This document shows positions 19,472-44,960 of a stretch of DNA of 64,000 nt, one piece after another (position 1 is the stretch's first letter; the number at the start of each line of letters is the position of its first letter). The position numbers were made by a program, and so were the translations under genes. The DNA comes from an uncultured Pseudomonadota bacterium (lineage in GTDB: Bacteria > Myxococcota_A > Bradymonadia > Bradymonadales > GCA-2716585), in NCBI GenBank assembly GCA_937123825.1, contig CAKZKQ010000402.1, positions 922 through 64,921 of the forward strand, written 5' to 3'. Below the pieces are notes generated by a model. The model searched no databases, was not told where the DNA came from, and was given only the letters and a program-made list of their open reading frames with translations.

Positions 19472-19538
19472 CACCAACCCTCCACACACCAACACCCGTT
19501 CCTTGCCCGGCCACACCCAACCCACAGGGCCCGCAAAC

Positions 19539-20798: not shown

Positions 20799-21109
20799 AC
20801 AATTTCTCCCTTCAATCACATCCAACCCGGCCACAAGAGCCCGGAAGACAGTGGTTCCAACGGTATCCTTACTGAAAAACTGCGCCATTGAGGCTCCAAC
20901 AATCGCACAAAACCATTGGTAATAGAAGCACAGAACTGCTGAAGTGGCTCGCAGAGTGCAAAAGCCACCCGAACAAGCTCCCTCGACGCGAGAGAGCCCC
21001 GAAGGGGTGATGAGTAAGATGGAAAATATGGGGGAACGGTGGGGTGCCGCTGCGCTTAAGACGTGGAGCCAGATGATGCCAAACGACAAGCTAAAGGCTT
21101 GGTTTGGTC

Positions 21110-25996: not shown

Positions 25997-28900
25997 TGCG
26001 CCTCCAGCTGCGCTTCCAACCGTGCCCGCAGCGCGTTGATCTCCCGGCGATCCGGGTGGTCGTCTCCAAGACGCGCCAGTGCCTGGGGCGCCAGCGCCTT
26101 CAGGGTGCGCAGGGCGCGGGTGTGATCTTGCGCCAGGACATGGACCTGGGCCAGATCGAGCGCGCTGCGCAGCACTTCGGGGTGATCGCTGCCCAAACGC
26201 CGCCGCCGGGTGTCCAGAATCATGGGGGCCAGCGCCGCCGCCTCTTCAAGCCTTTGGGCCGCCATCAGCCCCCGCAAACGCTGACGCTGGCTCCAGAGCG
26301 TCTCGGGATGGTCCGAACCCAGCCAGCGACCACGCCCTTCGACCACCTGGCGGTGCAGTGCGTTGGCCTCGTCCAGTTGGCCTTGCGCCTGAAGCGTCGA
26401 GGCCAGGTTGTTGGCCACCCGCAGCCAGATGGGGTGGTCCAACCCAAAGACCTCTCTGGCCACCTCCAGGGATTGGCGCCCAAGGGCCTCGGCCTGCGCC
26501 AAATGACCAGACGCGCGCAGCGCCGAGGCCAGCATCACGCCCCCCTCCAGGGTCTGCGCGTCTTTGGGGCCCAGCGCCTCCAGGCGCGCCGCATAGACCT
26601 CCTGACGCAGCGCCAGCGCGCGCCCCAACTCCCCCCTGTCCTTGAGCGCCACGCTGAGCTGCTCCATGCTGCAGAGCGTCTGCGGATGGTGTGCCCCCAA
26701 TGTCCGGCGCCGCACCTCCAGCACGCGCCCGTGCAGCCGCTCGGCCCCCTGGTGGTTGCCCTTGAACCACAGCGCCACGGCCAACCCAAAGAGCGCCTCC
26801 AGGGTCAGCGCAGACTCGGAACCGCCCACTTCCCGCGCCAAGACCACCGCCTTGCGCAGCACATCGGCGGCCGCCTCAAAGCGCCCCTGAACCCGGTGCA
26901 GCTCCCCCAGATGGAGCGCCAACCGCACCAGGCGTTCGGATGGCTCGGAACCACCTTGTTCCAGTAATGCGGACGCGTGCGGGACGCTCTCGGCCAGACG
27001 CGCCCAACGATATGGGTGATGTCCATCCTTGTCGGACTCAAGGGCGTCCAAGAGCGCCTCCAGCGCTGCGCGCCGCCCTTGCCCGTCCACGTCCTGCCCT
27101 CTGAGAAAGTCGGCCACCACACGGTGCATCACCCCCAGAAAGGCCCCAGGAGAGCGCGTCAGGATGTTGTGCGCCACCAGGAGGCTGGCGGTTCCCGTGT
27201 CGGCCAGCGCCATCACCAGCGTCCTGGGCAGCGGCGCGGGAGCCATGTGCGCCAGCGCGCAGGCCAGCGACTGGGCTTTGGGCGTCAGCCGCCCAAAGCT
27301 CAGCAAGAGCGTCTCGGTGACGCCCGGCAACGCGGTGGCTCCAAGCTGCGGAGAAAGCGCCCGATGCCGCGCATCGAGCACCTGGGTCACCCCCTCTTGC
27401 CCCGCCTCCACCAACGACACCAACTCCCCCGCCCCAAGCTCACCGAGCACCAGCGAGCGGTTGAGCAGCTCCAACGCCAGCGGCAGCCCATCGACCCAGT
27501 CCACCACCTGCTGGGCCTCTTGCCTGGACCAGCCGCTGTCTTCAAACCCTGTCGCCAGCAGCGCCGCGCCGTCATCCTGCCCCAAAGGCGGCACCTGGAG
27601 GTTGATGACGGCCATCTCTGGGCGACGCATCCGCGAGGTCAACAAAACCGGCACCTGCCCCAACGCCGGACACCAATGCAGCAACGGTTGGCCTTGCTGA
27701 CCCGAGTCCGGCACAGGGAGGTTGTCGACCACCCAGAGCACCTCGGTGGCCCTGGGCAAACGCAGCAGCGCGCGCCGCAAGAGGTCGTCCAGCGACTGCG
27801 GCCTCTCAAGCAGCGCCGCCAGCGGCGGAGCGGCCGGCTCAAGGTGGCGCAAGATGTGGTGGAGGCTCTCATCGCGCCGCGTCGGGTCCGAGGCGTCCAC
27901 CCAGAAGACCCCGCCGGGAAAGCGGTTCAAGTGGCGCCAGGCAAACTCGATGGCCAGGCGAGTTTTGCCCATGCCGCCGTTGGCCGTCAGCGCGACTTGT
28001 CGGGGCTGGCCGTCGCGTTTGGGGGCATCGAGCAGATGTTCGCGCAGCGTCTCCATCAAACCGCCGCGGCCCACAAAACGCCCTCCGAGCGACGGCGAGA
28101 GCGGCGTGTGTGCGATCAGCCCCCCGCCGGGCATTGTCCACGCCACCGCGTCGGTCGCCAGAGCGTCGTGCACGGGGTCTTGGGTGATGGCCGACGCCTC
28201 AAAAGTGTCAAAGGTCAGCACAGAGGGGTGTGAACCGCGCCCGACGGCCCGCTCCAGCGCGCCCAGCATCGCCGCAGCGTCGGGATAACGGCCGTTGGGG
28301 TCGGTGCTGATGGCGGCGGAGATGACCGGCCACAGGGCGCTGGCGCGCACCTGCGCGGCGATCTTGAGTTCTCCTCGGATGTGCACCAACGCACAAGACC
28401 ACCACCCCTGCCCTTCGACCACGGGCTGGGCGGTGATCAACTCGGCCATGATGAGGCCCATTTGATAGACGTCGATGGCGGGAGAGACGAGTTGGTGCTC
28501 CAGATACTCGGGGGCCATGTAGAGGGGCGTGCCGATGGACTGGCCGGGCTGCGTCATCCGCGTGGGGGCGCGGCCTTCGCGCAGCACCTCGCGGCGCACG
28601 TGGGCCACTCCAAAATCGACCAGCTTCAGGCGCTCGCCGCGCTGACCGGGCTTGTGCACAAAGAGGTTGGAGGGTTTGAGATCCTTGTGCACCACGCCCT
28701 GGCGGTGGGCCTGGGCAAGGCCTTCAAGGCAGGGCGCCATCAGGGCGGCGATGCGCTGGGCAGACATCGGGCCACGCAGATCCAGTTCGTCGCCCAGGTC
28801 ATGGCCGTCGAGCAGCTCCATGACGATGTAGGGCAACTGGTCCTGGTGGATCCCGAAGTCGTGGATGACGACCACGTTGGGGTGCTGGAGCCGGGCGGCG

Positions 28901-29103
28901 GCGGTGGCCTCTTGAAAGAAGCGCGCCTGGAGTTGGGGGTCGGCGTCCTGGGTCAGGAGCATCTTCAACGCCACCGCGCGGCCCACGCTCAACTGCGTGG
29001 CGCGGTAGACCACCCCAAAGCCGCCCTGCCCCAACATCCCCTCAAGACGATAGGCCCCGTCGATGATGTCTCCGGGCTGTGGCAACGCGTCCGACACGCT
29101 CAC
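25993..29103 (-). CDS. Ser/Thr protein kinase fused to a STAND (NB-ARC-like) NTPase and C-terminal TPR repeats
   Basis: Kinase subdomains GQGGFGVVYRA, ALK, HKDLKPSN, DFG, APE. P-loop VALTANGGMGKTRLAIEFAW. C-terminal kinesin-light-chain-type TPRs (LGxDHPxTL...). The GTG start overlaps the amidohydrolase stop (GTGA). Confidence 0.85.
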   Translation of the reverse strand: MSVSDALPQPGDIIDGAYRLEGMLGQGGFGVVYRATQLSVGRAVALKMLLTQDADPQLQARFFQEATAAARLQHPNVVVIHDFGIHQDQLPYIVMELLDGHDLGDELDLRGPMSAQRIAALMAPCLEGLAQAHRQGVVHKDLKPSNLFVHKPGQRGERLKLVDFGVAHVRREVLREGRAPTRMTQPGQSIGTPLYMAPEYLEHQLVSPAIDVYQMGLIMAELITAQPVVEGQGWWSCALVHIRGELKIAAQVRASALWPVISAAISTDPNGRYPDAAAMLGALERAVGRGSHPSVLTFDTFEASAITQDPVHDALATDAVAWTMPGGGLIAHTPLSPSLGGRFVGRGGLMETLREHLLDAPKRDGQPRQVALTANGGMGKTRLAIEFAWRHLNRFPGGVFWVDASDPTRRDESLHHILRHLEPAAPPLAALLERPQSLDDLLRRALLRLPRATEVLWVVDNLPVPDSGQQGQPLLHWCPALGQVPVLLTSRMRRPEMAVINLQVPPLGQDDGAALLATGFEDSGWSRQEAQQVVDWVDGLPLALELLNRSLVLGELGAGELVSLVEAGQEGVTQVLDARHRALSPQLGATALPGVTETLLLSFGRLTPKAQSLACALAHMAPAPLPRTLVMALADTGTASLLVAHNILTRSPGAFLGVMHRVVADFLRGQDVDGQGRRAALEALLDALESDKDGHHPYRWARLAESVPHASALLEQGGSEPSERLVRLALHLGELHRVQGRFEAAADVLRKAVVLAREVGGSESALTLEALFGLAVALWFKGNHQGAERLHGRVLEVRRRTLGAHHPQTLCSMEQLSVALKDRGELGRALALRQEVYAARLEALGPKDAQTLEGGVMLASALRASGHLAQAEALGRQSLEVAREVFGLDHPIWLRVANNLASTLQAQGQLDEANALHRQVVEGRGRWLGSDHPETLWSQRQRLRGLMAAQRLEEAAALAPMILDTRRRRLGSDHPEVLRSALDLAQVHVLAQDHTRALRTLKALAPQALARLGDDHPDRREINALRARLEAQLEAQ

Positions 29104-30402: not shown

Positions 30403-31512
30403 TTGCACCTTGGTTCCCGACACGTTTTACATCATCGCCTTTTCAAGTCGGGGTGCGCGCCCTTGGATGCTCAGAAGAGTACAGCCTCCAGCGAGTTTGA
30501 CCTTTACCTGGCCCAGTGCAGGGATCTTGTCATTGAAGAGATCAAAGACATCGTCCCCGCCGACGAGCGCTACGGTCCGGTGCTCTATGATTTGATGCTC
30601 GAGTACCCGCTGCGCAGAGCCAAGGGCTTTCGCCCGGCGCTGTGCATGGCCACCTGCCGGGCGCTCGGCGGGCATCTGGAGCAGACGCTGCGCACGGCGG
30701 CGGTGCTGGAGATGTACCACAACGCCTTTTTGATCCACGACGACGTGGAGGACGGCTCGCTTAAGCGCCGCGGCGGCCCGACTCTGCACCAGACCTACGG
30801 GGTGCCCATCGCGGTCAACGTCGGCGACGCGATGCTGGCGCTCTCGCTCCAGCCGCTGCTGGACAATATGGCGCTGCTGGGGCTGGGCAAGGCGCTGCGG
30901 ATCTTGCAAATGGTGGCCGAGATGGCCCGCCAGTCGGCCGAAGGCCAGGCGCTGGAGCTTTTCTGGATCCGCCAGGGCCGCTGGGGCCTTGAAGACGACG
31001 ATTACCGCCACCTGGTCCACAAAAAGACCGGCTGGTACACCTTTGTCGCCCCCATCCTCATCGGCGCCATCATCGCCGGGGTCGAAGACGAGCGCCAGGA
31101 GACGCTGCGCCAACTCTGCTGGGACCTAGGGATCGCCTTCCAGATCACCGACGACGTGCTCAACCTGGTGGCCAACGAAAACGCCTACGGCAAAGAGATC
31201 AACGGCGATCTGTGGGAAGGCAAGCACACCCTGATCCTCATGCACGCCATGCGCCAGGCCACCGACGCACAACGCGCCCAGCACGGGGCCACCCTGCGCA
31301 AAGCGCGCCACGAAAAAACCCCGCAAGAGGTCGCCGACCTGCGCGCGCTCATCGACGACAAAGGCTCCATTGGCTACGCGCAAGAAATCGCCGCCGCCCA
31401 CGCCAAGGCCGCCGCCGAGCACCTGCGCGCCACCGCCGACTGGATGCCGCCGTCGATCCACCGCGCCTTCATCCAGGAGTTGGTCCAGCGCGTCACCTCG
31501 CGCCTTGCTTGA
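30403..31512 (+). CDS. Polyprenyl diphosphate synthase (GGPP/FPP synthase family)
   Basis: First DDxxD motif FLIHDDVEDGSLKRRG and second motif FQITDDVLNL, with the KT/GKxxxDLxEGK region. The start is uncertain (TTG at 30403 or an internal site); no in-frame ATG lies near the N-terminus. Confidence 0.75.
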   Translation: MHLGSRHVLHHRLFKSGCAPLDAQKSTASSEFDLYLAQCRDLVIEEIKDIVPADERYGPVLYDLMLEYPLRRAKGFRPALCMATCRALGGHLEQTLRTAAVLEMYHNAFLIHDDVEDGSLKRRGGPTLHQTYGVPIAVNVGDAMLALSLQPLLDNMALLGLGKALRILQMVAEMARQSAEGQALELFWIRQGRWGLEDDDYRHLVHKKTGWYTFVAPILIGAIIAGVEDERQETLRQLCWDLGIAFQITDDVLNLVANENAYGKEINGDLWEGKHTLILMHAMRQATDAQRAQHGATLRKARHEKTPQEVADLRALIDDKGSIGYAQEIAAAHAKAAAEHLRATADWMPPSIHRAFIQELVQRVTSRLA

Positions 31513-31523
31513 GGCCCCGTCCC

Positions 31524-32441
31524 ATGAGCCAAAAAGAAACCATCACCTACGAACTCTACCGCAGCGCCGCGCGACGCCAGGCGGCGCTCCTGCTCAAAGG
31601 AATCCACCACATGAACCACCAATACCCCTGGCCCCACGGCCACTACCCCGGTCAGTACCCCGGCCAATGCCAGCCGCCCAGCGGCGCCGACATGCTCTAC
31701 CAACTCCACCGGGTCCACTTCTACATCCAAAACGAGCTTGCCAAGCTCCTGATGGGCGGCGTGCCCTACTGCCCACCGCAGCCCACACCGCCCGGCTGCG
31801 CACCACCCTGCCCCCCGCCCGCCAACCCCTGCCCTCCGCCCCAGGATCACTGCAGCCCGCCCCACAAACCCCACAAGGGCAGCTTCTGCGTGCACCCCGA
31901 GGTCTGGCTCAAACCGGACCCCAAAGACCCCTGCAAGGCCTGGGGCACCTTTGTGATCGAAAACCGCCGCAACGCCCACATGCGCGCCGACGTCTCGCTC
32001 TCGGCCTTTGAACCCGACGCCGTCCTGGTCACATCCATGGACGCGCGCTGGCAAATCACCCCCACCAGCAACGCCCGCACAGGCAACAGCCTGCAATCGG
32101 GCCAGGGCACCAGCATCCCCATCCCCCCGTGCAGCAGCGCCACCGTCACCTTCAGCATCGACTACAAAGACATCTTCCAGCGCGCCGGTGACTACACCGC
32201 CACCATCCACGTCGCCTCCGAAGGCAAAACGCGCCACTTTGACGTCAAGCTCAAGGTCGACCGCAAATGCCTCTGCGGCCCCAAAGGCACCGCCCCCGAC
32301 AAAGACTGCGCACCCCAAAACAGCCTCGAAGACCGACTCGGCAATCTGGAAGCAAATATGGCGAAGATACTCGCCCTGCTCGACAAGCAAAACGCCTCCG
32401 CTGAAGAAGAGGCCGCCCCAACCCCGACCATCGAGGAGTAA
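31524..32441 (+). CDS. Hypothetical Cys/Pro-rich protein with C-terminal coiled coil
   Basis: MSQKETITYELYRS...CPPQPTPPGCAPPCPPPANPCPPPQDHCSPPHKPHKGSFCVHPEVW...LEDRLGNLEANMAKILALLDK. High GC3. The upstream in-frame extension overlapping the synthase is rejected. Confidence 0.45.
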   Translation: MSQKETITYELYRSAARRQAALLLKGIHHMNHQYPWPHGHYPGQYPGQCQPPSGADMLYQLHRVHFYIQNELAKLLMGGVPYCPPQPTPPGCAPPCPPPANPCPPPQDHCSPPHKPHKGSFCVHPEVWLKPDPKDPCKAWGTFVIENRRNAHMRADVSLSAFEPDAVLVTSMDARWQITPTSNARTGNSLQSGQGTSIPIPPCSSATVTFSIDYKDIFQRAGDYTATIHVASEGKTRHFDVKLKVDRKCLCGPKGTAPDKDCAPQNSLEDRLGNLEANMAKILALLDKQNASAEEEAAPTPTIEE

Positions 32442-32447
32442 GGCCCC

Positions 32448-32903
32448 ATGTCCAACCTCATCCCGCGTCTGGTCTTTGACGAGGACGATCCGCAAGAGGC
32501 CAACGACAGCCCCGAGACACAGCGCGCCCAGGACGAAGCGCAGGTGGGTCAGGCCATCGAGCAGGCCCAGCGCATGCTCATCACCCACCCCATCGCCGCC
32601 CAGGCCATCTTTCGGGCCTTCGTGGCCGAGGGGCGACGCCACGCCCAGACCCCGCAGGGCGCCGCACTCAAGGCCCAGATCGAAGACTCCGAGCTGGTCC
32701 GGCGCGGGCGCGTGGTGTGGGAAGGGGTGACCTTCAACATGCTCGAAGAGGCCCAGCACGCCACCACCTTCCTGCCCTCGGCGCTGCTCGATGCGCTGGT
32801 GGCCGCCACCGCACACGTCGACGTCGATCAACTCCTTGAGCGCCACGCCAACCCCTGGAACCGCCACCATGACCCAACCAAAGCTGATCCATCGTCACGG
32901 TGA
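32448..32903 (+). CDS. Hypothetical protein (151 aa)
   Basis: GGAGTAAGG RBS 5 nt before the ATG. Coding-like GC3. No recognisable domain. Confidence 0.4.
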   Translation: MSNLIPRLVFDEDDPQEANDSPETQRAQDEAQVGQAIEQAQRMLITHPIAAQAIFRAFVAEGRRHAQTPQGAALKAQIEDSELVRRGRVVWEGVTFNMLEEAQHATTFLPSALLDALVAATAHVDVDQLLERHANPWNRHHDPTKADPSSR

Positions 32904-33177
32904 GGCCTTCAACGACCGCAACCACTTCCTCTTTGTGGCCCTGGGCGCCCACGCCATCAACGAGCGCCTCCAGACATTGCTGGACGGCTGCGCGCGGCTT
33001 AAATCGGCCACACCGACCGATCCCGAGCACGACGTGGTCTACTTCCTGCTCGGCCTGTCTGCCTTTGCCAATCAGGCCATGGACCACCTGGACGGCGCTC
33101 GCCAGTCGCCGCGCCAGCAAGACCCCATGGCCTTGACCGGCGACTCTGAGTTGACTGGCCGCCAGATGCTGGAGTGA
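32868..33177 (+). CDS. Hypothetical small protein (103 aa)
   Basis: MTQPKLIHRHGEAFNDRNHFLFVALGAHAINERL... Coding-like codon usage. Overlaps the previous ORF by 36 nt, so one of the two may be mis-called. Confidence 0.3.
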
Positions 33178-33181
33178 GCCT

Positions 33182-34222
33182 GTGGACCTGATCTCGGATG
33201 CCATCGTGCGCGCCGACTACTTTCGGCGCTCCCCCTTTGCCCACGGCGGTCGCGGCGGCCACAAAGAGTGGCTGCATTTCTGTGTGCACGGCCCCCAGGT
33301 GGCCGCCCTGATCAACTTCAGTGTCGTCGATGAGCGCCGCCACCACGGCCCGGTGCCCTGGCAAGAGGCCATGCGCCTGACCGTCCTGACCCACGACGGC
33401 CAGTGGGACGGCGACGTGGAGGTCTTTGACGCCCACGAGGTCCACCTGCCGGGCGGCAAAATCCACGCCCGCTACGGCCCCAACAGCCTGCGCTTCATCG
33501 ACGGGGCCTACCACATCCACGTCGAGATGCAGGACCGCCCCATCACCATGGACTTGCGCCTGCGGCCGCTGAGCATGCCGGGCCGCGCGCCCAACCTGAC
33601 CCGCGAAGACGGGCCGCCGATCCACTGGGTCGTGGTGCCGCGCCTGGAGGCCCACGGGACCATCACCATCGACGGCCGCGTCCATGAGCTGCACTGCGCG
33701 CCCGCCTACCACGATCACAACTGGGGGCACTGGTGCTGGGGCGATGATTTTGCCTGGGAGTGGGGTTTTGGACAGGACGAAGACCCGCAAAACCCCTGGA
33801 ACATGGTCTTTGTGCGGCTGACCAACCGCGCCCGCACGCGGATCATGGCTCAGGCCTTCTCGATCTGGAAGCACGGCCGCCAGATGCGCACCTTCCGGGA
33901 GCAGGAAGTGACCATCTTCCACGAAGGCAAGCACCTGCGCCCTGGGAGCGTCACCAAGATCCCTCGGGTCATGGGTTTGATCGCCCCGGCGCTGCCCACC
34001 GACGTCCCCCATTACCAAAACATCGTCGGCCACAGCGGTCAGGACCGGGTCACGTGCCGGTTTGAAGGCCACGACGTCAGCCAGGTCATCATCCCCAACG
34101 ACAACGACTTCGGCGTCACCATCATCAACGAGGTCAGCGGCGAGCTGTCCATGGAGGGTCAGATCGGCGGTGAGCCCATCAAAATGGCCGGGAGGGCGGT
34201 CTTTGAATTTCTGGGAGCATAG
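33182..34222 (+). CDS. CrtC/AttH-like (hydroxyneurosporene-synthase / lipocalin-like hydratase family) protein
   Basis: 346 aa. HWVVVPRLEAHGTITIDGRVHELHCAPAYHDHNWGHW resembles the aW-DHeW core of the CrtC/AttH family. GGAG RBS before the GTG start. Assignment is from memory of the family motif and is unverified. Confidence 0.5.
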   Translation: MDLISDAIVRADYFRRSPFAHGGRGGHKEWLHFCVHGPQVAALINFSVVDERRHHGPVPWQEAMRLTVLTHDGQWDGDVEVFDAHEVHLPGGKIHARYGPNSLRFIDGAYHIHVEMQDRPITMDLRLRPLSMPGRAPNLTREDGPPIHWVVVPRLEAHGTITIDGRVHELHCAPAYHDHNWGHWCWGDDFAWEWGFGQDEDPQNPWNMVFVRLTNRARTRIMAQAFSIWKHGRQMRTFREQEVTIFHEGKHLRPGSVTKIPRVMGLIAPALPTDVPHYQNIVGHSGQDRVTCRFEGHDVSQVIIPNDNDFGVTIINEVSGELSMEGQIGGEPIKMAGRAVFEFLGA

Positions 34223-34337
34223 CGCCAGCGGCGCCCAAAGAAACCCGGCCACCGGGGATGATTGCCATGACTTCCGGTCATTTTTGAAGCGCTCGCTGCG
34301 CCTGCTGTGGGAGCAGCACCCGCCGTCCTACCAACAA

Positions 34338-34700
34338 ATGGCCCTGGCGCTGGCAGGCAAGCGCGTCTTGATCGAGATCGACCACGAGGCCATCGCGCTG
34401 CGATTTGCCGACGGCACCGTCTACACCGAGGACCCACACGGTCACTTTGATGTCGAGGCGCGCACCAGCAAAGCCGTCATCCTGGGTCTGGTTGATGGCC
34501 AACACACGCTGATGAGCACGGTGCTTGAAGATCTCTTCTTTTTGCGCGGCGCGATGCCCGAGCTGCTGGCCTTTCACGAGGGGCTGACATTCTACCTCCA
34601 GGGCGCCGTGCGCGCGCCGTCATTTCCGGGGCTCTTGCGCCGCTTTCGGGCGCTGGAGCCGTCCCAGACCACCCCAACAACGCACACACAGGTGCGCTGA
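34338..34700 (+). CDS. SCP2-like small protein (sterol/lipid carrier fold)
   Basis: KRVLIEIDHEAIALRFADGTVYTED...AVILGLVDGQHTLMSTVLEDLFFLRGAMPELLAFHEGL fits the SCP2 alternating pattern. The upstream part of the listed ORF from 34062 is S/T/R-rich and non-coding-like. Confidence 0.4.
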   Translation: MALALAGKRVLIEIDHEAIALRFADGTVYTEDPHGHFDVEARTSKAVILGLVDGQHTLMSTVLEDLFFLRGAMPELLAFHEGLTFYLQGAVRAPSFPGLLRRFRALEPSQTTPTTHTQVR

Positions 34701-34720
34701 CCACACCAGGAGCCCACACC

Positions 34721-37700
34721 ATGGCCCACCAGGGAAAGAAAAAGCGGGTGGCGGTCTTTGGCGCCGGGGTCACCGGGCTGACCGTCGCACATGAGCTGGT
34801 CGAACGCGGCTTTGAAGTCCACGTCTACGAAAAAGACCGCGTCATCGGCGGCATGGCCGCCACCCAATACAGTACCCACCCAACCCACGGCTGCGAGCCG
34901 GTCGAGTGCGAGCCATGCCAGGACAAGCACCCTTGTCCGACACACACCATGACGCGCGTCGCGCGCGCTGGTCGCCCCTTGCAGGTCCTGGCCTTCTCGA
35001 CCCCGGAAGAAGCCGGCACGACGCGCAAACCCCACGCCGCCGAGGCCAGCACGCTCCTGGTCGGTGGCAGCGTCGGGATCAGCGTCTGGCGCGTGGACAC
35101 CGGGCGGCGCGTGGCCACCTTTGGCGACCGTGAAGAGATCACCGCTGTGGCCATCGACACCAACGAGCGGTGGATCGCCACCGGCGATCAACGCGGCCAC
35201 GTCAAAATCTGGGACCTGAAGAAGCGCAAGCGCGTCGCCTGCCACAGACCCGAAGGGAACCCTGGGCAGGTCCACAGCGTCGGAATCGCCTTTGACGCCG
35301 ACATCCAAACCATCACCGCCGTGGCCACCTACAGCCAGTGCGAGGTGACCCTTGAGGTCAACCTCCTGGCCATGGTGGACGGCACAGGCTGCGAGCCATC
35401 CCAGGTCCCCGTGGCCCACTGGCAACCCCCTCAGTGCGCCCAGGTTGGCACCGCCTTCGCCTATAAAGACCAAACCTTTGAACTCTGCCCAAAAGACGAC
35501 GACCCAGCGCTTCCTCGCCGCACCTTCGAGATCCCCGAGCTGCCTGACGCCGTCGCCTTCATGGACGTCGCCCCGGATGGACGATTTGTGGCCTTTGGTG
35601 ACCAAGAGGGACACGTCATGGTGGCGCAGATCGACGGGGATGACCTTCGGATTCACCAAGGACCGCTGGAAACCAGTTTGGAGTTGCGCAGCGTCCATCT
35701 CCTTGGCGGCAACAAAGTGGTGCTGCTGCGCTACCAAAGTGGGCTGCTGGAGTGGCGCGACTTTGATGATCTCTCGGTGGTCCTGCAGAGCCGCGACTTG
35801 AGCATCACATCACTCTTCGAAGACTTCCGTCTGCAGCCTGCGTTGATGGACTCAGCGCTCTCGGAAGACGATCGACTCTATGCCGCCGGTTACAGCGACG
35901 GTTCAGTGGCGCTCTGGTCTGTGGAGGGCGAGCAGATCTGGCTCAAGCCGGTGGGAGAAGACAGCGTCCAGCCGCGCGCGCTCCCTGGCATACAAGCGCA
36001 ACAAACCGAGCAAGACACCCTCTTGCTCAGGACGGGGATGGAAGCGGCGTACCACTTCGTGGGCGTCTCCAGCCAGGAGGACAGGCTGCTCTCTGTGATT
36101 TTTGCCACCGATCGACAGGGGCAACTGAACATGCAGGCCAGAGTCTGGGAGGTCAGCACAGGCACACACCAGGCCGAGTTCTCCAACACACTGACCGAAC
36201 TGCTGGCCGAAAACCTCAGCGAGCTGCCATCTTCGTTTGAGCGTGTCAAACTCTCGCTCAGCGGTCGCAGTGGCTCGTTGACCATCGACATGATGTTGCT
36301 CGGAAACGAAAAGTTCCAGCGCCAAACCATTGGGCTGGCCGCAAAAACACGCGCCCAAACCCAGCAACGCCCCGTATTCCAAAACGCCGCCGCGCGACAA
36401 AGCGATTGTGATCCATGCAAGCTCTTGGAGGACCCGTGCCTCCAGACCACAGCGTTGGTGGCCATGGACGACGGCACCACGCTTGTGGGCAGGGTCGACG
36501 GGAGCGTTCGTTGGAGTTTGGGGTCCATGGACGCCCCAACGCTCCCACATGGCACCGTCACCGCCGTCGACGCCATCGCGCACACGCAAAACGGACGCGA
36601 TCTGGTGCAGGTCGCCCTGGGACACGAAGACGGCACGCTCTTGTGGTTGACCTACGAGAAACTCACCAACACACTCAGCGGCAGCGCTCCCCCCAGGCTG
36701 GCCTTGCGCGCTGAGCGCCCCCATCGCCTCCATGATGGCCCCATCACCGCGTTGACCATCATCCGCAACCCCAGCGACTCAAGAAACCCAGTGTATGGCA
36801 TCGTGACGGGAGGCCAGGACAGGCGACTGCGCGGCTTGGATCTGGTCAACAACGCAGCCTTTTCGCTGGCCAGCAACCACGAAGGGCCCATCACCAGCAT
36901 CGTCTACCGCAAGATCCCCATGGTGGCGGCCCGCTCACTGAGCTTCGGCGCGCTCAACTGGCGCTCCTCGTACGAGGTCGCCGTCGGCTCCAGAGACATC
37001 ATCGACCGCGACAACACGGTCAAGCTCTGGGACTTGAGCGACGGCATGGAGATCCTCACCTACGAGCCGCACCCGTGGAAGCCGCTGCCGGGCGAGCACG
37101 GCTTTCGGTTCTTTCCGGCCTTCTACCGGCATGTCTTTGACACCATGGAGCGCACGCGCTTGCGAGCCGACCGCCACCGCACCCAGGCCGACAACATGGT
37201 GGCCACCACCAACCAGGGCATCGCCCTCCAGGACGGCCTGCTCTCCTTTGAGTTCGTGCGCAAGCGCGAACCCTCCGTCGAGGCCACCATCCGCACCGTG
37301 CACCAGGCCATGGCGGGGCTCGGCTACACCTACGGCGACATCGAGCGCTTCAAGGTCAAGACCCTCCAGTTCATGACTGCCTGCTCGGCCAGACGCCAAA
37401 CCTACGAGGAGATCTCCTGGTGGGATTTTGTCGAGGCCGAGCGCTTCAGCCCCCAAACCCAGCAGGCCCTCAACACCGTCCCCAGAGTCCTGGTTGCCAT
37501 GGACGCCATACGCGGCGACGCCCTGACTCAGGGCCTGGTCATGCTCCAACTCTTGATGGACCAGGGCAGCGACGGAGAACACACCGACCGGGTCCTCAAC
37601 GGCCCCTCCTCAGAGGCCTGGTTCAACCACTGGCAGGACTACCTCGAAGACCGAGGCGTGCACTTTCACCTCAACACCGCCATCGAGACCCTCCTGCTCG

Positions 37701-38941
37701 ACAGCAGCCGGGGCGACATCAAAGGGGCCATGGTCCGCCCCCAGCCGCTCATCCCCCAATGCTGCCAGGACCCCAGACCGGCGCACATGGTCCAGGCCGA
37801 CTTCTTTGTCCTGGCCATCCCCATGCGGGCCGCCCAGGCGCTCGTCCGCCGCCTGATCCGTGACCATCAACACCATTGGAGCCCCCCGGCAGGCGGCGAC
37901 CTTGACCAACTCTACCGCTACAACGTGCCCAACTCCGAAGCCTGGATGAGCGGCATCCAATACTACCTGCGCAACGACGTCCCCATCGTCCGTGGCGGTC
38001 ACATCTACTACCCCGACTCGCCGTGGGGCCTCTCATCCGTCTCCCAGGCTCAGTTCTGGGACCGCCAACTGGAGTTGACCTACGGGGTCCGCGGGGTGGT
38101 CTCGGTGGTGGTCGGCGACTGGGAAAAACCGGTGCCGCTCAACCCTCCAGGCGCCGCCACAAAGTGGTGGCATCACAGTCAGGTCCCCGGCAAGACCGCC
38201 CGGCAGTGCACGCCCGATGAGCTGGCCCGCGAGGTCTGGCGTCAGATCAACCTCTCCGCCAACGGCCAGGACCTCATCGAGCGGCGCGAGGTTCGAGGCC
38301 GCACCGACCTGCCCGAACCCCTCTACTACCACCTGGACGACGACCTGAACTTTGACGGCCCGCTGATTGAGACCCGGCGGCGTTACCTCATCTCGCCGGT
38401 TGGCCAGTGGAAGCACCGCCCGGGGCGCCTCAACGCCACAGAAGGCTACGAGCTTCAGACCCACAACCTGGTCCTGGCGGGCAACTTCATGAAGACGTTT
38501 ACGCGACTGACCACCATGGAGTCGGCCAACGAGTCGGGCCGCCACGCCGCCAACGCCATCCTCTCATCGCCCAGGGCGTGTTTTGACGGGGAGCGCTGCG
38601 CGATCTACCCGCTTGAGCGCTGGGAGCCCGCAGACGCCATCGCCGCCAAACGGCTCGACAAGCTCCTCTTTGACGCAGGCCTGCCCCACATGTTCGACAT
38701 CCTGAGACTGATGGACGTTGTCGACACCTGGACCCCCGACCACCCGCGCATGACGTTGACGCGCTTTGCCAACAAACACGCCATGCCACCGACCTTGCGG
38801 AGCCTCTTGTTGCGCTACGCCGAGCGGATCGACGCCTTTTACCGCGAGGTCGAGCTGCGACCGCGCGATGGAGACCTCACCGACCACGCCTCGGCGCTCA
38901 TCTCGCTCATCAACCGCTTTTTGCCGCTGGGTTCAGGCTGA
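34721..38941 (+). CDS. FAD-dependent desaturase / amine-oxidase (PDS/CrtI/HpnE-like) with a WD40 beta-propeller region of roughly 900 aa inserted after the dinucleotide-binding motif
   Basis: N-terminal VAVFGAGVTGLTVAHELVERGFEVHVYEKDRVIGGMAA (Rossmann GxGxxG). WD40 blocks (GHVKIWDL, DGSVALWSV, DNTVKLWDLSDG). Then EHGFRFFPAFY (compare EHGLHIFFGAY of PDS/ZDS), and C-terminal ESANESGRHAANAIL. AGGAG RBS. Confidence 0.85.
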   Translation: MAHQGKKKRVAVFGAGVTGLTVAHELVERGFEVHVYEKDRVIGGMAATQYSTHPTHGCEPVECEPCQDKHPCPTHTMTRVARAGRPLQVLAFSTPEEAGTTRKPHAAEASTLLVGGSVGISVWRVDTGRRVATFGDREEITAVAIDTNERWIATGDQRGHVKIWDLKKRKRVACHRPEGNPGQVHSVGIAFDADIQTITAVATYSQCEVTLEVNLLAMVDGTGCEPSQVPVAHWQPPQCAQVGTAFAYKDQTFELCPKDDDPALPRRTFEIPELPDAVAFMDVAPDGRFVAFGDQEGHVMVAQIDGDDLRIHQGPLETSLELRSVHLLGGNKVVLLRYQSGLLEWRDFDDLSVVLQSRDLSITSLFEDFRLQPALMDSALSEDDRLYAAGYSDGSVALWSVEGEQIWLKPVGEDSVQPRALPGIQAQQTEQDTLLLRTGMEAAYHFVGVSSQEDRLLSVIFATDRQGQLNMQARVWEVSTGTHQAEFSNTLTELLAENLSELPSSFERVKLSLSGRSGSLTIDMMLLGNEKFQRQTIGLAAKTRAQTQQRPVFQNAAARQSDCDPCKLLEDPCLQTTALVAMDDGTTLVGRVDGSVRWSLGSMDAPTLPHGTVTAVDAIAHTQNGRDLVQVALGHEDGTLLWLTYEKLTNTLSGSAPPRLALRAERPHRLHDGPITALTIIRNPSDSRNPVYGIVTGGQDRRLRGLDLVNNAAFSLASNHEGPITSIVYRKIPMVAARSLSFGALNWRSSYEVAVGSRDIIDRDNTVKLWDLSDGMEILTYEPHPWKPLPGEHGFRFFPAFYRHVFDTMERTRLRADRHRTQADNMVATTNQGIALQDGLLSFEFVRKREPSVEATIRTVHQAMAGLGYTYGDIERFKVKTLQFMTACSARRQTYEEISWWDFVEAERFSPQTQQALNTVPRVLVAMDAIRGDALTQGLVMLQLLMDQGSDGEHTDRVLNGPSSEAWFNHWQDYLEDRGVHFHLNTAIETLLLDSSRGDIKGAMVRPQPLIPQCCQDPRPAHMVQADFFVLAIPMRAAQALVRRLIRDHQHHWSPPAGGDLDQLYRYNVPNSEAWMSGIQYYLRNDVPIVRGGHIYYPDSPWGLSSVSQAQFWDRQLELTYGVRGVVSVVVGDWEKPVPLNPPGAATKWWHHSQVPGKTARQCTPDELAREVWRQINLSANGQDLIERREVRGRTDLPEPLYYHLDDDLNFDGPLIETRRRYLISPVGQWKHRPGRLNATEGYELQTHNLVLAGNFMKTFTRLTTMESANESGRHAANAILSSPRACFDGERCAIYPLERWEPADAIAAKRLDKLLFDAGLPHMFDILRLMDVVDTWTPDHPRMTLTRFANKHAMPPTLRSLLLRYAERIDAFYREVELRPRDGDLTDHASALISLINRFLPLGSG

Positions 38942-41900
38942 GTCGCCGTCGTAAAGCGGCATAAAGACCGCCGCCATCTTGTCGGGCGCGGCGATCTCCT
39001 GCTGGCGCATCCAGGTTCGGGCCTGCGCCGCCATCTCGCGCCCTGCCCCATCGCCTTGGAGTTGACCCAACCACAAACGCCCCGAGGCCGCGTGCAGGTG
39101 CATGTCCAGGGCCTCAAAACCCTCAATGGCCTCGCGCAGACAGGATTGTGTGGCCTGGAGGTCACCGCCCAGACACTGCACCGAGGCTTCGAGCGCCGCC
39201 CCCAACGGCATGGACCAGTCGCTGGGCTCTTTGCGCAGGCGCGCGGCCGCTCGACGCGCAGCACGCGTCATCGACGCACGGCTCTTGGACTCAGCGTGGG
39301 CAACAGCAGCGCAAAGGCGGCCGTGGAGTTCGATCAGTTCGGCGCGCGGGCTCTCCAACTGCATGAAACCCGCGCGGCGCAGCTTTGGCATCCTGCTTTG
39401 ACACAACTCCAGCGCTTGCGGCGCCGAACCACGCACATAGAGTGATGCCTGGGCCACAGCGAGCAGGTGTAGGTAGTGGGCGAGACTGGTGTCTTTGAGC
39501 GTCCAGCGCTCTAGGGCCTGATTGGCTTGGTCCAGGGCTTTTTGGGGCTCGTCGCTGGCCAACCAGATGGCGTTGGGCACTCCCAGCGGCAAGCCCAGTT
39601 CGGTCATCAGGTCGCCGCGTTCTCTGGCGTCGTTGAGCAAACCGGGCATGCGCCGGGCCACGTCTCCAAGGCGGCCCTGACGAGTGAGGGTCGCGTTGAT
39701 GAAGCTCTCACAACTGGCGATCTCCCAGGAGACCCCGTGGCACTCTTTGCGGAAGGTGTCGATGGCCTTTTGCACAAAGGCTTCGCTGCGCGTCCACTGG
39801 GTCCACATGTAGGCCACCGTGCCTGTGGCCATGTCTGTCCAGGCCCGGTCGTAGGGCTTGCCAGTTTGGGCGGCCAGCGTCCGGGCCTGCTCCAACAGCG
39901 CCTCGGCTTTGTCCTTGCGCGCGCCGCTGCCCTGGGTGGCCAGGAAGTGGGCCTCAAAGGCCAGCCCGCGCACCAACCTTGAGGGCTCCCCCAGATCGAG
40001 CGCCTCGCGCAGGTGCAAGACCGCCAGCGCGTGACCAAGCAAGGGGTCGATGGTGGAAAAGCTTGAAGAAGCGCTCCAGCAGGCGTCCAGACGTGCCAGT
40101 TTATCGGGCTCAACCGCCTCAACCTGACGCAACTCGTACTTCAAACCACGGACCTTGAGGCGCGTGCGTTGGTAGAGCACCGCCGCCAGGGTCGAGGCAG
40201 CGCTGGACGGCATCGAAATGCCCACCGCAGCGAGCGCCTGACGCATCAATCTGGCACCGCGCTCCACATGACCGGCGCGCAAATACTGCTCGGCGGCGCG
40301 CCCCACCAGCCCCTGACGCCAACCCTCGGCTCCGTCCGGGGCGCACTCCAGTGCTTCTTCATACATCTTGGCCGCCTCAAACCCTCGTCCGGCCGACGCC
40401 AACACATCTCCAAGCGCCTCAAGCAGTTCATGACGGGGGGCTGGCAACGTTTCAAAGGCCAAAGCCCGGCGATAAAAGGCCGCCGCTTGCTCAAAGGCCA
40501 ACGTCGCGCGGGCCTTGGTGGCGGCCTTCAGCGCCCATCCAGCAGCCTTCTGGAGGTTTCCGCAAGCCTCAAAATGGTGCAAGAGCGCGTGGGGCTCGGT
40601 GTCGGGCCGATCCACCAACGCCATCGCCAGTTGCGTGTGCCTGGAGACCGTATTTGTGTGGGGCGAGTGGCGTGCAAGCGCCTCACCTATCTTGTCGTGG
40701 TAGACATGCAGGCGCTCTTGTGGGCCTTGACCGCTGGTGCGCAGCAAGGAGAGCTTGCGCAGCCGCCCCACATCAAGCATGTCGATCAAACCATCCTGGC
40801 CAAAGCCCTTGAGGACGTCGCGCGGCAAGGGCTGGACGGCAAAGGCCACCAGCTCCATCAGCGCACGCGCGCTGGGCCCCAAACACGCCAGCCGGTCGAG
40901 GATGAGCGCGTCAAGAGAGTGGTCGGCTGGGCGCTCATCGGCCACCGAGGACACCCCAAGGGCCCGGTTCTGGACCAACTCGCGGATCCAGAACGGGCTG
41001 CCCTCGGCCTCCATCAAGAGCGTCTGGAGATCTTGATGGGCGTCGAGCTTGAGCGCCTCAAAGAGGTTTCGGGCAAGCTGCACGCTCAACTCGGCGGGCA
41101 GCGGCTCCAACTCAAGCTCCAGACAACGCGCCGGTGGCAGAACCGGCGAGGGGGGATCCAAGAGCGCCTGGAGCATGGCGCTTTGCTGGCGGTCTTCGCT
41201 GCGAAAAGACAAGAGCCACAGACAAGACAGCGCCGAGCCCGGCAAAAAGAGCTCGCGCATGATCCGCGCGCTGTCCATGTCCCCCCATTGGAGGTCGTCG
41301 ATCCACAAAATCAGGCGCCGCTGCGCGCACACGCACGCCATCAAGCGGCGCAGCGCCGTGGCCGCCCGACGCTGAAGGTCTTGTGGACGCTGAGACTCAA
41401 GCCATGCCTGTCCATCGAGCGCTTCGAAGGCTGGCACGGTGTCCATCACCGGAAACACACACGTCAGCGCGGCGATCCCTTCGGGCCCCACCGCCTCCAC
41501 CGCGCGCCGGGCCAGCGTTTTTTGCCCCAAAAGCGTCGCCAACCCGTCCAGCACCCCGTCCAGCGCCTTAAAGGGCATCATTTCCTGGGGATGGCAGCGG
41601 CTTCGGAGGATGGTCACGGTGTCGTCACTGCGATGCTGGCGCAAAAATTCGCGCACCAACTCGCTCTTGCCAAGCCCCGAGCGCCCCTGCACGCAGACCA
41701 CCGCCTGCTCACCCTGACGACAGCCCTCAAACGCCTTGGCGAGCACCCCCAACTCGCGCTCGCGGCCCACAAACGGGGCCTGCTGAATGACGGGAAAGAG
41801 GCCCGAGGTCAGACGCGCTGCGCTGCGCGCCAAAGGGGCTTGAAGTGGCCCCAGCGTTTGTTCATCGACCCACCGCAGCACCTCGTCTCTTCCCGCGCGC

Positions 41901-42904
41901 TCATTGGGGTCGATGCGCAGCAAATCCATCACAAGCTGCGCCAACGACTGCGGCAGCTCAGGACAAAGGGTCTGCACCGGCACTGGCTTCATGGTTGAAC
42001 GCGTGAGCATCAACTGCAACGGCGGACCGCTGACGGGCAGCCGCCCGGTCAACGCCTCATAGAGCAGCACCCCCACGCTGAACCAGTCCGACGCCGGCGT
42101 CAGCGCCACCTGCGAGGCCTGCTCTGGGGACATGTAGGCCGGCGTGCCCGCAATGGACTGCCAACGCTCATCGCCCTTGCCCTCGGCGTCGCTGAAAAAC
42201 TCCACCAGACCAAAGTCCAGCACCACCAGGCGCCCCTGGCGATCCACCAGAATGTTGGACGGTTTCAAGTCCCGGTGCAGCCGACCCGCGTCGTGCAACA
42301 CCGACAACCCCGACACAAGCTGGCGCAGGACAGACCCCACGCGCCCCATCAAAGCGTCATCAAACGCCATGGAGGGCCAACTTCCCGCTTGAATGGCACC
42401 GTCGGGCGGCCCAGGCAGGGTTGGCTGCGGCACCCAACCCGGCAAAGGGTAGCGCGCTGTGGACTGGGAACGCTGCTGGCTGTGGGGATCGGCGGTTTCA
42501 TCCAGACCGGACGCACCCGAGTTGTCCACGGTCGTGGCGGTGGTGTCGAGCGCTTCGTCCCCCGCGCTGGTCTGCTCACCGCGCAACCATGAACGAACGT
42601 TAACACCATCAACCAGCTCCATCGTAAAGAACTGATCCCGGCCATCGACCACCAGATCATAAAACTCCAGCAGGTTCCGATGGGTGATGTCCTGGAGCGA
42701 ACGAAACTCCCGCTTGAGCATCTGGGCGCTGGTGGGCTCGCGCCTCAAACGCTTGAGCGCCAACCACTTCGACGTCTCCAGATCATAGACCCTGTAAACC
42801 TCGCCCATGGCCCCGGAACCCAACCTCTGGGCCCGGCTATAACGCTCATCAAAGAGTGACGGCTTCATCCACCTCCGGCTGGTGTCGATGGGTTTGATGA
42901 ACAC
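38933..42904 (-). CDS. Ser/Thr protein kinase fused to an AAA/STAND ATPase and TPR repeats (1323 aa)
   Basis: LGSGAMGEVYRV, ALK, HRDLKPSNILV, DFG, SPEQ. P-loop VVCVQGRSGLGKSELV. Long C-terminal TPR/alpha-solenoid. Convergent 9-bp overlap with the desaturase gene. Confidence 0.85.
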   Translation of the reverse strand: MFIKPIDTSRRWMKPSLFDERYSRAQRLGSGAMGEVYRVYDLETSKWLALKRLRREPTSAQMLKREFRSLQDITHRNLLEFYDLVVDGRDQFFTMELVDGVNVRSWLRGEQTSAGDEALDTTATTVDNSGASGLDETADPHSQQRSQSTARYPLPGWVPQPTLPGPPDGAIQAGSWPSMAFDDALMGRVGSVLRQLVSGLSVLHDAGRLHRDLKPSNILVDRQGRLVVLDFGLVEFFSDAEGKGDERWQSIAGTPAYMSPEQASQVALTPASDWFSVGVLLYEALTGRLPVSGPPLQLMLTRSTMKPVPVQTLCPELPQSLAQLVMDLLRIDPNERAGRDEVLRWVDEQTLGPLQAPLARSAARLTSGLFPVIQQAPFVGRERELGVLAKAFEGCRQGEQAVVCVQGRSGLGKSELVREFLRQHRSDDTVTILRSRCHPQEMMPFKALDGVLDGLATLLGQKTLARRAVEAVGPEGIAALTCVFPVMDTVPAFEALDGQAWLESQRPQDLQRRAATALRRLMACVCAQRRLILWIDDLQWGDMDSARIMRELFLPGSALSCLWLLSFRSEDRQQSAMLQALLDPPSPVLPPARCLELELEPLPAELSVQLARNLFEALKLDAHQDLQTLLMEAEGSPFWIRELVQNRALGVSSVADERPADHSLDALILDRLACLGPSARALMELVAFAVQPLPRDVLKGFGQDGLIDMLDVGRLRKLSLLRTSGQGPQERLHVYHDKIGEALARHSPHTNTVSRHTQLAMALVDRPDTEPHALLHHFEACGNLQKAAGWALKAATKARATLAFEQAAAFYRRALAFETLPAPRHELLEALGDVLASAGRGFEAAKMYEEALECAPDGAEGWRQGLVGRAAEQYLRAGHVERGARLMRQALAAVGISMPSSAASTLAAVLYQRTRLKVRGLKYELRQVEAVEPDKLARLDACWSASSSFSTIDPLLGHALAVLHLREALDLGEPSRLVRGLAFEAHFLATQGSGARKDKAEALLEQARTLAAQTGKPYDRAWTDMATGTVAYMWTQWTRSEAFVQKAIDTFRKECHGVSWEIASCESFINATLTRQGRLGDVARRMPGLLNDARERGDLMTELGLPLGVPNAIWLASDEPQKALDQANQALERWTLKDTSLAHYLHLLAVAQASLYVRGSAPQALELCQSRMPKLRRAGFMQLESPRAELIELHGRLCAAVAHAESKSRASMTRAARRAAARLRKEPSDWSMPLGAALEASVQCLGGDLQATQSCLREAIEGFEALDMHLHAASGRLWLGQLQGDGAGREMAAQARTWMRQQEIAAPDKMAAVFMPLYDGDSA

Positions 42905-44803: not shown

Positions 44804-44960
44804 ATTGCCGCTGAGCCCCAAAGTCTGATCCCAATCCAATCCATCAACGCCCTTTGCAACAATGCACAGGGACGACAAGCTCACCAGATCAGAGTGCCAA
44901 GAACTGATTCACGCTTCAGGTGCAGGTTAACACTGGCGCGCATAGGAAAAAAGACCGCGT

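Follow-up and report, generated by a model that had tools for sequence, protein, structure and literature searches.

The pairing of a desaturase with an AttH-type hydratase on isoprenoid chains has precedents in CrtD/CrtC and in Ted/Hgs. In the spirilloxanthin pathway, CrtD, a flavin adenine dinucleotide (FAD)-dependent desaturase of the amine oxidase superfamily, and CrtC, a cofactor-free hydratase of the AttH/CrtC fold, act on the end of an isoprenoid chain, and a geranylgeranyl diphosphate (GGPP) synthase gene is found in the same cluster. The catalytic residues of CrtC follow the pattern His-x-Trp...Tyr-x-Asp, in which the Tyr266-x-Asp268 pair is essential (PMC4717167). In archaea, a desaturase (Ted) and an AttH-like hydratase (Hgs), encoded by adjacent or overlapping genes, jointly modify isoprenoid chains, with Hgs, the hydroxy-GDGT (glycerol dialkyl glycerol tetraether) synthase, converting the new double bond into a tertiary alcohol (bioRxiv 10.1101/2025.10.20.683597). 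The present analysis concerns seven genes, denoted G1 to G7, and their convergent neighbor K1, in a 64,000-nucleotide stretch of DNA (hereafter the window) from an uncultured Pseudomonadota bacterium (Bradymonadales in the GTDB lineage; contig CAKZKQ010000402.1, positions 922 to 64,921). The chemistry resembles that of the known isoprenoid desaturase and hydratase pathways, while the system as a whole appears undescribed, and a literature search found no description of the operon.

The explanation that we favor, with moderate confidence, is a dedicated, vertically maintained operon that makes or remodels an isoprenoid lipid bound to a soluble carrier, most likely of the C20 type. What appears to be new is a five-gene core, three orphan families, fused barrel-carrier forms, an insertion hot spot in a flavoenzyme, and an interchangeable partner of the STAND (signal transduction ATPase with numerous domains) type. 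The features of the locus are as follows.

30403 (or more likely 30463)-31512, plus strand: G1, Thermus-type GGPP synthase-like trans-isoprenyl diphosphate synthase, as predicted from sequence
31524-32441, plus strand: G2, accessory Cys/Pro-rich protein
32448-32903, plus strand: G3, conserved helical protein of ~130-150 aa
32869-33177, plus strand: G4, conserved protein of ~95-105 aa
33182-34222, plus strand: G5, predicted enzyme with a double beta-barrel of the AttH/CrtC/tocopherol-cyclase fold
~34203-34700, plus strand: G6, putative SCP2-fold lipid-carrier protein
34721-34870, plus strand: G7, N-terminal FAD-binding Rossmann beta-alpha-beta unit, with GAGVTG at aa 14-19
34871-37075, plus strand: G7, insert of ~735 aa forming a WD40-type beta-propeller region, preceded by the first Rossmann unit and followed by GEHGFRFFP
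37076-38941, plus strand: G7, predicted phytoene desaturase (PDS)-like flavoenzyme core, with GEHGFRFFP at aa 791 and the C-terminal FAD motif TTMESANESG at aa 1264
38933-42904, minus strand: K1, Ser/Thr kinase with an AAA_16 STAND nucleoside triphosphatase (NTPase) and a C-terminal helical/TPR region of ~620 aa

The seven co-directional plus-strand genes at 30403-38941, already listed in the original prediction made from the sequence alone, are separated by gaps of 4-20 nt or overlap. The GC content at their third codon positions (GC3, 0.74-0.88) matches the codon-position signature of the real genes of the window (GC3 0.74-0.9; window ~65% GC). G1 starts with the TTG at 30403 or, more likely, with the TTG at 30463 (349 aa); its stop at 31512 is followed by the ATG of G2 at 31524, and the G2 stop at 32441 by the ATG of G3 at 32448. 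The two small overlapping reading frames of the original prediction correspond to G3 and G4, both conserved, the ATG of G4 (32869) lying inside the end of G3 (stop 32903). The G4 stop at 33177 is followed by the GTG of G5 at 33182, G6 probably starts with the TTG at 34203, which lies behind GGGAGG and overlaps the end of G5 (stop 34222), and G7 starts with the ATG at 34721. A promoter and terminator scan of this GC-rich operon DNA gave no informative signal.

A scan of one genome per species yielded at least 534 loci, and the best 80 were fetched; presence was counted over 81 non-redundant loci, and 86 related loci were used for the signature scan. The same gene order is found in the 81 non-redundant loci, which belong to several phyla, and the observation as a whole is confirmed. 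The hosts are Myxococcota (Sorangium, Nannocystis, Corallococcus, Myxococcus, Archangium, Vitiosangium, and Labilithrix), Binatia, Chloroflexota (including Anaerolineae), Thermoanaerobaculia, Acidimicrobiia, and many species of Mycobacterium and Mycolicibacterium. The complete seven-gene order recurs in a metagenomic relative (70% identity), in Sorangium So ce542, and in a metagenome-assembled genome (MAG) of Binatia, G7 being devoid of the WD40 insert in the latter two. G3 is present in all 81 loci, while G1, G6, and G7 are found in 73/77, 67/77, and 62/69 of the assessable ones, respectively, and the pairwise-identity matrices of G1, G3, G5, G6, and G7 correlate with r values of 0.63-0.83 (52 loci). 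Chance falls far short of explaining a gene order shared across phyla to this extent. G1, G3, G4, G5, and G6 make up the minimal ancestral core, with G7, G2, and the type of STAND partner varying by lineage.

In several genomes, the whole operon is present twice, as diverged copies (L033 and L052, L004-type and L038-type, L009 and L025, L071 and L075, L040 and L074). The two copies of Sorangium differ in their partner, which is a kinase-STAND protein in one and a CHAT-nSTAND1-WD40 protein in the other.

The sequence of G1 identifies it as a predicted bona fide trans-prenyl diphosphate synthase. It matches Pfam polyprenyl_synt (PF00348) with 206.2 bits against a cut-off of 27, and its closest match in the Protein Data Bank (PDB) is the GGPP synthase of Thermus thermophilus (1WMW, E 1.6e-47 over 260 residues). 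Instead of the two DDxxD motifs originally ascribed to the synthase, its two Asp-rich motifs are DDVED (the FARM motif, aa 113-117, 30739-30753) and DDVLN (aa 250-254, 31150-31164). The Asn in place of the third Asp of the second motif is shared with the crystallized, active Thermus enzyme, which also has a DDxED first motif. The residues preceding this motif differ, being FQNWVLVH in the Thermus enzyme and an invariant YHNAFLIH in G1, and G1 is furthermore locked into an operon, its chain length being a prediction. The longer signature YHNAFLIHDD[VI]ED is specific to the cluster, in which it is invariant, and is kept in ~70 loci. G1 falls below every NCBIfam equivalog cut-off (NF041003, NF045685 CrtE, and NF041169 encapsulin cargo; best scores of 178, 170, and 163 against 450-500 bits), and we therefore infer the chain length of the product rather than assign it. 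The idea that G1 is an encapsulin cargo, which starts from a family-2 encapsulin cargo model as its best NCBIfam match, was rejected for lack of support.

The AYHDHNWGHW stretch pointed out in the original prediction is located at aa 175-184 of G5 and shows the strongest conservation within a large family, which numbers 674 database homologues at 90% clustering and 805 clusters at 50% identity, with A-Y-H-D-H-N-W-G at aa 175-182 (33704-33727) invariant and HKEWxHF at aa 27-33. Structure modeling predicts a double beta-barrel of the AttH type. The CrtC/AttH assignment holds up at this fold level and not at the level of Pfam, where the CrtC/AttH models (PF07143 and PF17186; CrtC_N and Lipocalin_9) match neither the window protein at E up to 10 nor any of 26 aligned family members at E up to 5. 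Searches of PDB sequences with the single sequence and with the family profile returned nothing relevant and no CrtC/AttH, and tblastn of G5 against a plasmid collection gave no match. The only weak relatives at the sequence level are Tocopherol_cycl (18/26 members) and DUF2804 (17/26), both at the AYHDHNWG strand; the best Tocopherol_cycl (PF14249) match has an E value of 0.0025 and, with 15.2 bits, lies below the gathering cut-off of 26.6. Y176-H-D178 and W149 are invariant and H148 is present in the majority, a spacing similar to the His-x-Trp...Tyr-x-Asp of CrtC as far as a comparison of sequences can indicate. Tyr176-x-Asp178 may parallel the Tyr266-x-Asp268 pair of CrtC (PMC4717167).

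The SCP2-like nature originally proposed for G6 is supported across its family, although the window protein itself scores below the Pfam cut-off (16 bits against 21.3 for PF02036). Among 30 family members, SCP2 is matched by 14, the SCP2-like Alkyl_sulf_C by 7, and SCP_3 by 2 (E 1e-5). The family profile gave 13 PDB matches at E up to 10, and 10 of them, among which are the first seven, are chains of the SCP2 fold, with UbiJ heading the list (E 0.05). Natural G5-G6 fusion proteins occur in five independent representative clusters, direct evidence of a joint function of the barrel and the SCP2 domain.

G7, which is 1406 aa long, is matched by the Pfam models NAD_binding_8, Amino_oxidase, and DAO at aa 9-51. 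The Amino_oxidase (PF01593) score of 32.6 bits (cut-off 19.8) comes mainly from the N-terminal 34 residues, the C-terminal part scoring 16.8 bits. The equivalog models all remain below their cut-offs and match the Rossmann segment only (HpnE 45.9 vs 283, ZDS 32.8 vs 622, and CrtD 24.4 vs 550), no CrtI profile reaches its cut-off, and the G7 profile likewise matches only the Rossmann segment among PDB sequences. The modeled structure suggests the three-domain PDS-like fold, with phytoene desaturase as the closest structural match, and appears nearer to plant PDS than to CrtI. The description of G7 as a WD40-split desaturase proves apt, in that a WD40-type region separates the Rossmann unit from the PDS-like core. 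Pfam WD40 and beta-propeller matches cover aa 103-412, and eight W[DSER] blade-end motifs are present. This insert is common only to the closest relatives (L001/L008), with an identity of 27% vs 57% in the core. At the same site, the mycobacterial type carries an OmpA-like domain above the Pfam cut-off, and the site is empty in the forms of 540-630 aa.

In the G7 family, the loop that follows the first Rossmann unit (window 34871-37075; P0129, P0135, and L074) is an insertion hot spot. The OmpA-like domain of mycobacterial G7 is of the peptidoglycan-binding type, other long inserts (L034, L050, and L065) have no Pfam match, and the insert-free forms include haloarchaeal homologues.

G2, G3, and G4 represent orphan families. 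The PPCPPP runs noted earlier in G2 are real (12 Cys and 38 Pro in 305 aa; GC3 0.74). From its N-terminus, the protein comprises a helix, a Cys/Pro linker, a predicted beta-sandwich, and a coiled-coil tail. A hidden Markov model derived from the genes at the G2 position in ~35 other loci detects the window G2 (E 6e-13), the sole Pfam match of the window G2 is a sub-threshold WxLIP_HBD, and about half of the loci, including those of Mycobacterium and of the Cystobacterineae type, lack the gene. G2 is a real gene and a variable accessory. G3, found by tblastn in 81/81 loci, is characterized by the motif HPxAAQAxFxALVAEGRRFAxTPEGA. None of its 489 homologues has a functional source name or a Pfam match, no credible PDB or Pfam match was found for G3 itself (the profile gave only spurious vinculin matches against the PDB), and there are no domain fusions among the best 120 homologues; longer homologues were rejected as fusions, the extra length being N-terminal extensions. 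G4 has two helices of the LLGL type and a linker rich in Pro and Ala, and it ends in a conserved tail that usually reads LRxLLR but is MLE in the window protein. It has no Pfam or NCBIfam match. In 75 loci, G3 and G5 are separated by a G4-like reading frame, and 60 of these show the C-terminal motif.

The G4 tail (window 33150-33185; ~60 loci) directly precedes the start of G5, often overlapping it as ATGA. It could act as a docking peptide, and it could also be constrained in part by the ribosome-binding site and the start overlap of G5. The loci L026, L028, L053, and L069 (Chloroflexota and Thermoanaerobaculia), which are without G7 and a STAND gene, have three extra conserved genes upstream of G1 that lack Pfam matches. 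Two of these are G2 paralogues, and one of the two has densely clustered Cys residues (CDCECDCDGDGGCDRC...), reminiscent of the Cys/Pro runs in the window G2. Other flanking genes in Chloroflexota and M. aurum (sugar kinase, ABC permeases, cutinases, and EamA) were set aside as unrelated and not conserved.

K1, which the original prediction did not include in the cluster, encodes a protein of 1323 aa on the minus strand, convergent with G7 and overlapping it by 9 nt, with Pkinase, AAA_16, and TPR_12 matches in Pfam. Its C-terminal 620 aa are found, over most or all of their length, in the same convergent position at 32 other loci of Myxococcota and Binatia, with identities of 23-46% (at least 28% in 30/32). 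K1 is a co-conserved operon partner, and the cluster extends to 42904. Clustering of the open reading frames (ORFs) of all loci revealed one further recurrent family, a large AAA_16 STAND protein (53 loci). All mycobacterial loci have an AAA16-TPR-GAF-adenylate/guanylate cyclase at a fixed upstream position, two G7-less Sorangium loci have a CHAT-nSTAND1-WD40 protein in place of G7, and the G7-less proteobacterial locus L031 has a caspase-DUF7379 protein. In Chloroflexota-type loci, no STAND gene was found within 10 kb.

The operon is preceded in the window by a divergent Amidohydro_2 gene and by a second Ser/Thr kinase-AAA16-TPR protein (25993-29103, minus strand); the latter has no orthologue at related loci and is, therefore, probably not part of the system. 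Just beyond K1, a PP2C phosphatase fused to a cyclic-nucleotide-binding domain is encoded on the minus strand (43526-44884), possibly belonging to the same signaling neighborhood. A conserved protein of 258 aa is encoded between the AAA16-GAF-cyclase gene and G1 at L068 (7330-8106) and 10 other mycobacterial loci. It has no Pfam match and, considered as an encapsulin shell, no BLASTP similarity to an M. tuberculosis Cfp29 sequence.

In the scheme that we infer for the substrate, the order of the steps, the product, and the role of K1, G1 would supply an all-trans C20 chain (possibly C15-C25), as suggested by homology and by the Phe at position -4 and the Ala at position -5 of the first Asp-rich motif. 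G7, as an FAD enzyme resembling plant PDS in its predicted fold, would then dehydrogenate or otherwise redox-isomerize the chain. On the basis of fold and precedents, G5 is proposed to protonate an isoprene C=C bond by means of the invariant Tyr-His-Asp-His-Asn-Trp-Gly strand, with the resulting tertiary cation being quenched either by water, to give a tertiary alcohol, or by an internal nucleophile, to give a ring. G6, as a putative SCP2-fold protein, would hold the hydrophobic intermediate and pass it to G5, the physical coupling of the two being shown by the natural G5-G6 fusions. G3 and G4, and G2 where present, may be non-catalytic scaffold or regulatory subunits, and the STAND NTPase of K1 may control the pathway or sense its product. 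As compared to this scheme, Ted is a B12-radical-SAM (S-adenosylmethionine) enzyme and not a flavoprotein, the Ted/Hgs substrates are membrane tetraethers, no prenyl synthase, SCP2, or STAND gene accompanies that pair, and Hgs is likened to G5 through its AttH-like character.

A number of points weigh against this explanation. G5 and G7 are assigned by predicted fold only, and the structure model of G7 is that of a homologue that is 37% identical to the window core. The AttH-type fold also houses Diels-Alderases and a phosphate lyase, and hydration by G5 is therefore not assured. G7 is missing from some loci, so that desaturation cannot be essential to the core chemistry, and PDS-type enzymes do not usually act on a C20 chain alone. 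Neither an acceptor nor a condensing enzyme was seen, G2, G3, and G4 have no assignable role, and all named homologues are either "hypothetical" or bear a generic or evidently spurious automatic label. Finally, STAND and kinase genes are abundant in myxobacteria, and part of the neighborhood signal beyond the K1 orthologues could therefore be coincidence.

We have also considered that, rather than serving metabolic housekeeping, the operon might be the arm through which a conflict or programmed-cell-death system based on STAND proteins, in multicellular-type bacteria, delivers its output or generates its signal, such that STAND activation switches on a membrane-active or messenger isoprenoid. 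The interchangeable flanking partners (kinase-AAA16-TPR, AAA16-TPR-GAF-cyclase, CHAT-nSTAND1-WD40, and caspase-DUF7379) are consistent with such a role, as are the sensor-type domains (WD40, OmpA-like) inserted in G7, the occurrence of two operon copies in several genomes, and the fast evolution of the insert (27% vs 57% identity). However, the synteny is stable and the identity matrices co-vary as in ordinary chromosomal operons, no mobile-element context was seen, and the Chloroflexota-type loci have no STAND gene within the 10 kb considered. A search of PADLOC-DB 2.0 gave no match for G1-G6, a generic desaturase match (to the Rossmann segment) and one weak repeat model for G7, and generic kinase-domain models for K1, that is, no operon-specific match for G1-G7, and the operon is not mentioned in the surveys of conflict systems consulted. 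We consider this role unlikely.

The original prediction placed the locus in a carotenoid or squalene-derived pathway. Formulated as an alternative, the cluster would tailor a C30/C40 polyene, with G7 as a CrtD/PDS-like desaturase, G5 as a CrtC-like 1,2-hydratase, and the head-to-head synthase (CrtB or HpnCD) supplied by another part of the genome. The closest structural match of G7 is indeed predicted to be phytoene desaturase, G5 combines the modeled CrtC/AttH fold with a Y-x-D motif on a barrel strand, and carotenoid clusters usually begin with a GGPP synthase gene. Many of the hosts, such as myxobacteria and pigmented mycobacteria, are carotenogenic. The absence of a phytoene/squalene synthase from the window, stated earlier, is borne out: no SQS_PSY-type synthase (CrtB, CrtM, or HpnCD) is matched by Pfam among the window ORFs scanned, which also lack a terpene cyclase, and the PROSITE signatures PS01044 and PS01045 are found nowhere in the whole window or in the 86 loci with flanks of up to 10 kb on each side (1.5 Mb). 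A few window ORFs (including one of 2436 aa at 158-7468) lay outside the Pfam scan and were covered by that of the PROSITE signatures. In contrast to CrtD/CrtC, none of the loci has a phytoene synthase within it or nearby, G5 is not matched by the Pfam model of CrtC, and G7 fails the CrtD and CrtI equivalog models, its predicted fold being nearer to plant PDS; the CrtC, CrtD, CrtI, and HpnE profiles all remain below cut-off. Known carotenoid clusters have no counterpart of the STAND partner or of the conserved G3, G4, and SCP2 genes, and the hosts of the present cluster include Binatia, Anaerolineae, and Thermoanaerobaculia, with G7 missing from one form of it. The HpnC/HpnD/HpnE route to squalene is similar in that it involves a hydroxylated isoprenoid intermediate and in that the N-terminus of G7 scores highest with the model of HpnE, a member of the PDS-like branch; it differs in that this score (45.9 vs 283) covers only 40 residues and in that HpnC and HpnD, which have the SQS_PSY fold, are absent. 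Of the carotenoid-type interpretation, which is only partly supported, the desaturase-type G7 and the CrtC/AttH fold of G5 survive; the carotenoid or squalene-derived label is not supported, in view of the lack of a head-to-head synthase and of a CrtC profile match and of the family branch that has no desaturase. A tailoring role in such a pathway is improbable.

A prenylated quinol or chromanol-type pathway is another option, where G5 would close a ring on a geranylgeranylated aromatic head group in the manner of tocopherol cyclase, G6 would be a UbiJ-like SCP2 carrier, G4 a small helical partner like UbiK, and G7 a side-chain oxidoreductase. Tocopherol cyclase (VTE1, PF14249) and DUF2804 provide the sole detectable relatives of the G5 family at the sequence level, and these matches (18/26 for Tocopherol_cycl, best E 0.0025) fall on the conserved active-site strand. 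The chemistry of these enzymes is initiated by protonation of a prenyl double bond. UbiJ, which in the ubiquinone metabolon presents, along with UbiK, a polyprenyl intermediate to soluble enzymes through an SCP2-fold protein, is the closest PDB profile match of G6, and the small helical G4 beside the SCP2 protein presumably recalls UbiJ-UbiK. The matches of the Tocopherol_cycl and UbiJ type are, however, all under the curated cut-offs (15.2 vs 26.6 bits for the former; E only 0.05 for the latter). A UbiA-type aromatic prenyltransferase, a methyltransferase, or a ring-forming gene is conserved in no locus, no Ubi enzymes are encoded here, and the carrier is, unlike UbiJ, fused to the AttH-fold enzyme in some species. 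Such a pathway is quite doubtful.

Lastly, G5 as a non-canonical terpene synthase, whose AttH barrel would ionize or eliminate the diphosphate of the G1 product, as the related 25-phosphosteroid lyase eliminates phosphate, to give a hydrocarbon or tertiary alcohol then modified by G7, would explain a G7-less core of G1, G5, and G6, but is very unlikely given that most characterized members of the fold act on C=C bonds and not on phosphate esters and that no evidence of a metal-binding or diphosphate-binding motif was found in G5, with the model not inspected at residue level. Both this proposal and the STAND-based one overlap with the preferred explanation of a carrier-bound isoprenoid lipid rather than exclude it.

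Several other features of the window lie at a distance from the operon. At 59679-62204 (minus strand), an 841-aa bacterial homologue of the eukaryotic vault shell protein is encoded, with the Major Vault Protein shoulder and Vault_3 repeat domains (E 1.6e-22 and 1.6e-9). Two adjacent and similar beta-propeller-looking proteins of 412 and 516 aa, with hydrophobic N-termini, are encoded at 18329-21089 (minus strand); this stretch has a lower GC content (0.55-0.59) and a strong negative GC skew and may be a foreign island. The 2436-aa ORF at 158-7468, on the plus strand, has a GC3 of 0.92.

A further, more speculative proposal, to which we assign a low likelihood, is an isoprenoid signaling or effector system composed of G1, G3/G4, a non-canonical terpene-forming G5 of the AttH fold, and the SCP2 carrier, its product being a lipid messenger or membrane-active lipid that is made upon a trigger from, or is read by, the interchangeable STAND-type partner (kinase, cyclase, CHAT protease, or caspase). 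The WD40 or OmpA-like inserts of G7 would in that case be sensor or docking domains, and the system would be a lipid counterpart of the nucleotide-based immune and cell-death signaling in multicellular-type bacteria. More generally, at least 534 species-level genomes carry the operon, among them those of many Mycobacterium species, both environmental and opportunistic, and all its components are annotated as hypothetical or generically. Identification of the product would add a new class of bacterial isoprenoid lipid or a new signal and would show what several large orphan families do (that of G5 alone comprises 805 clusters at 50% identity), and the system could disclose how lipid metabolism is connected to STAND kinases and cyclases.

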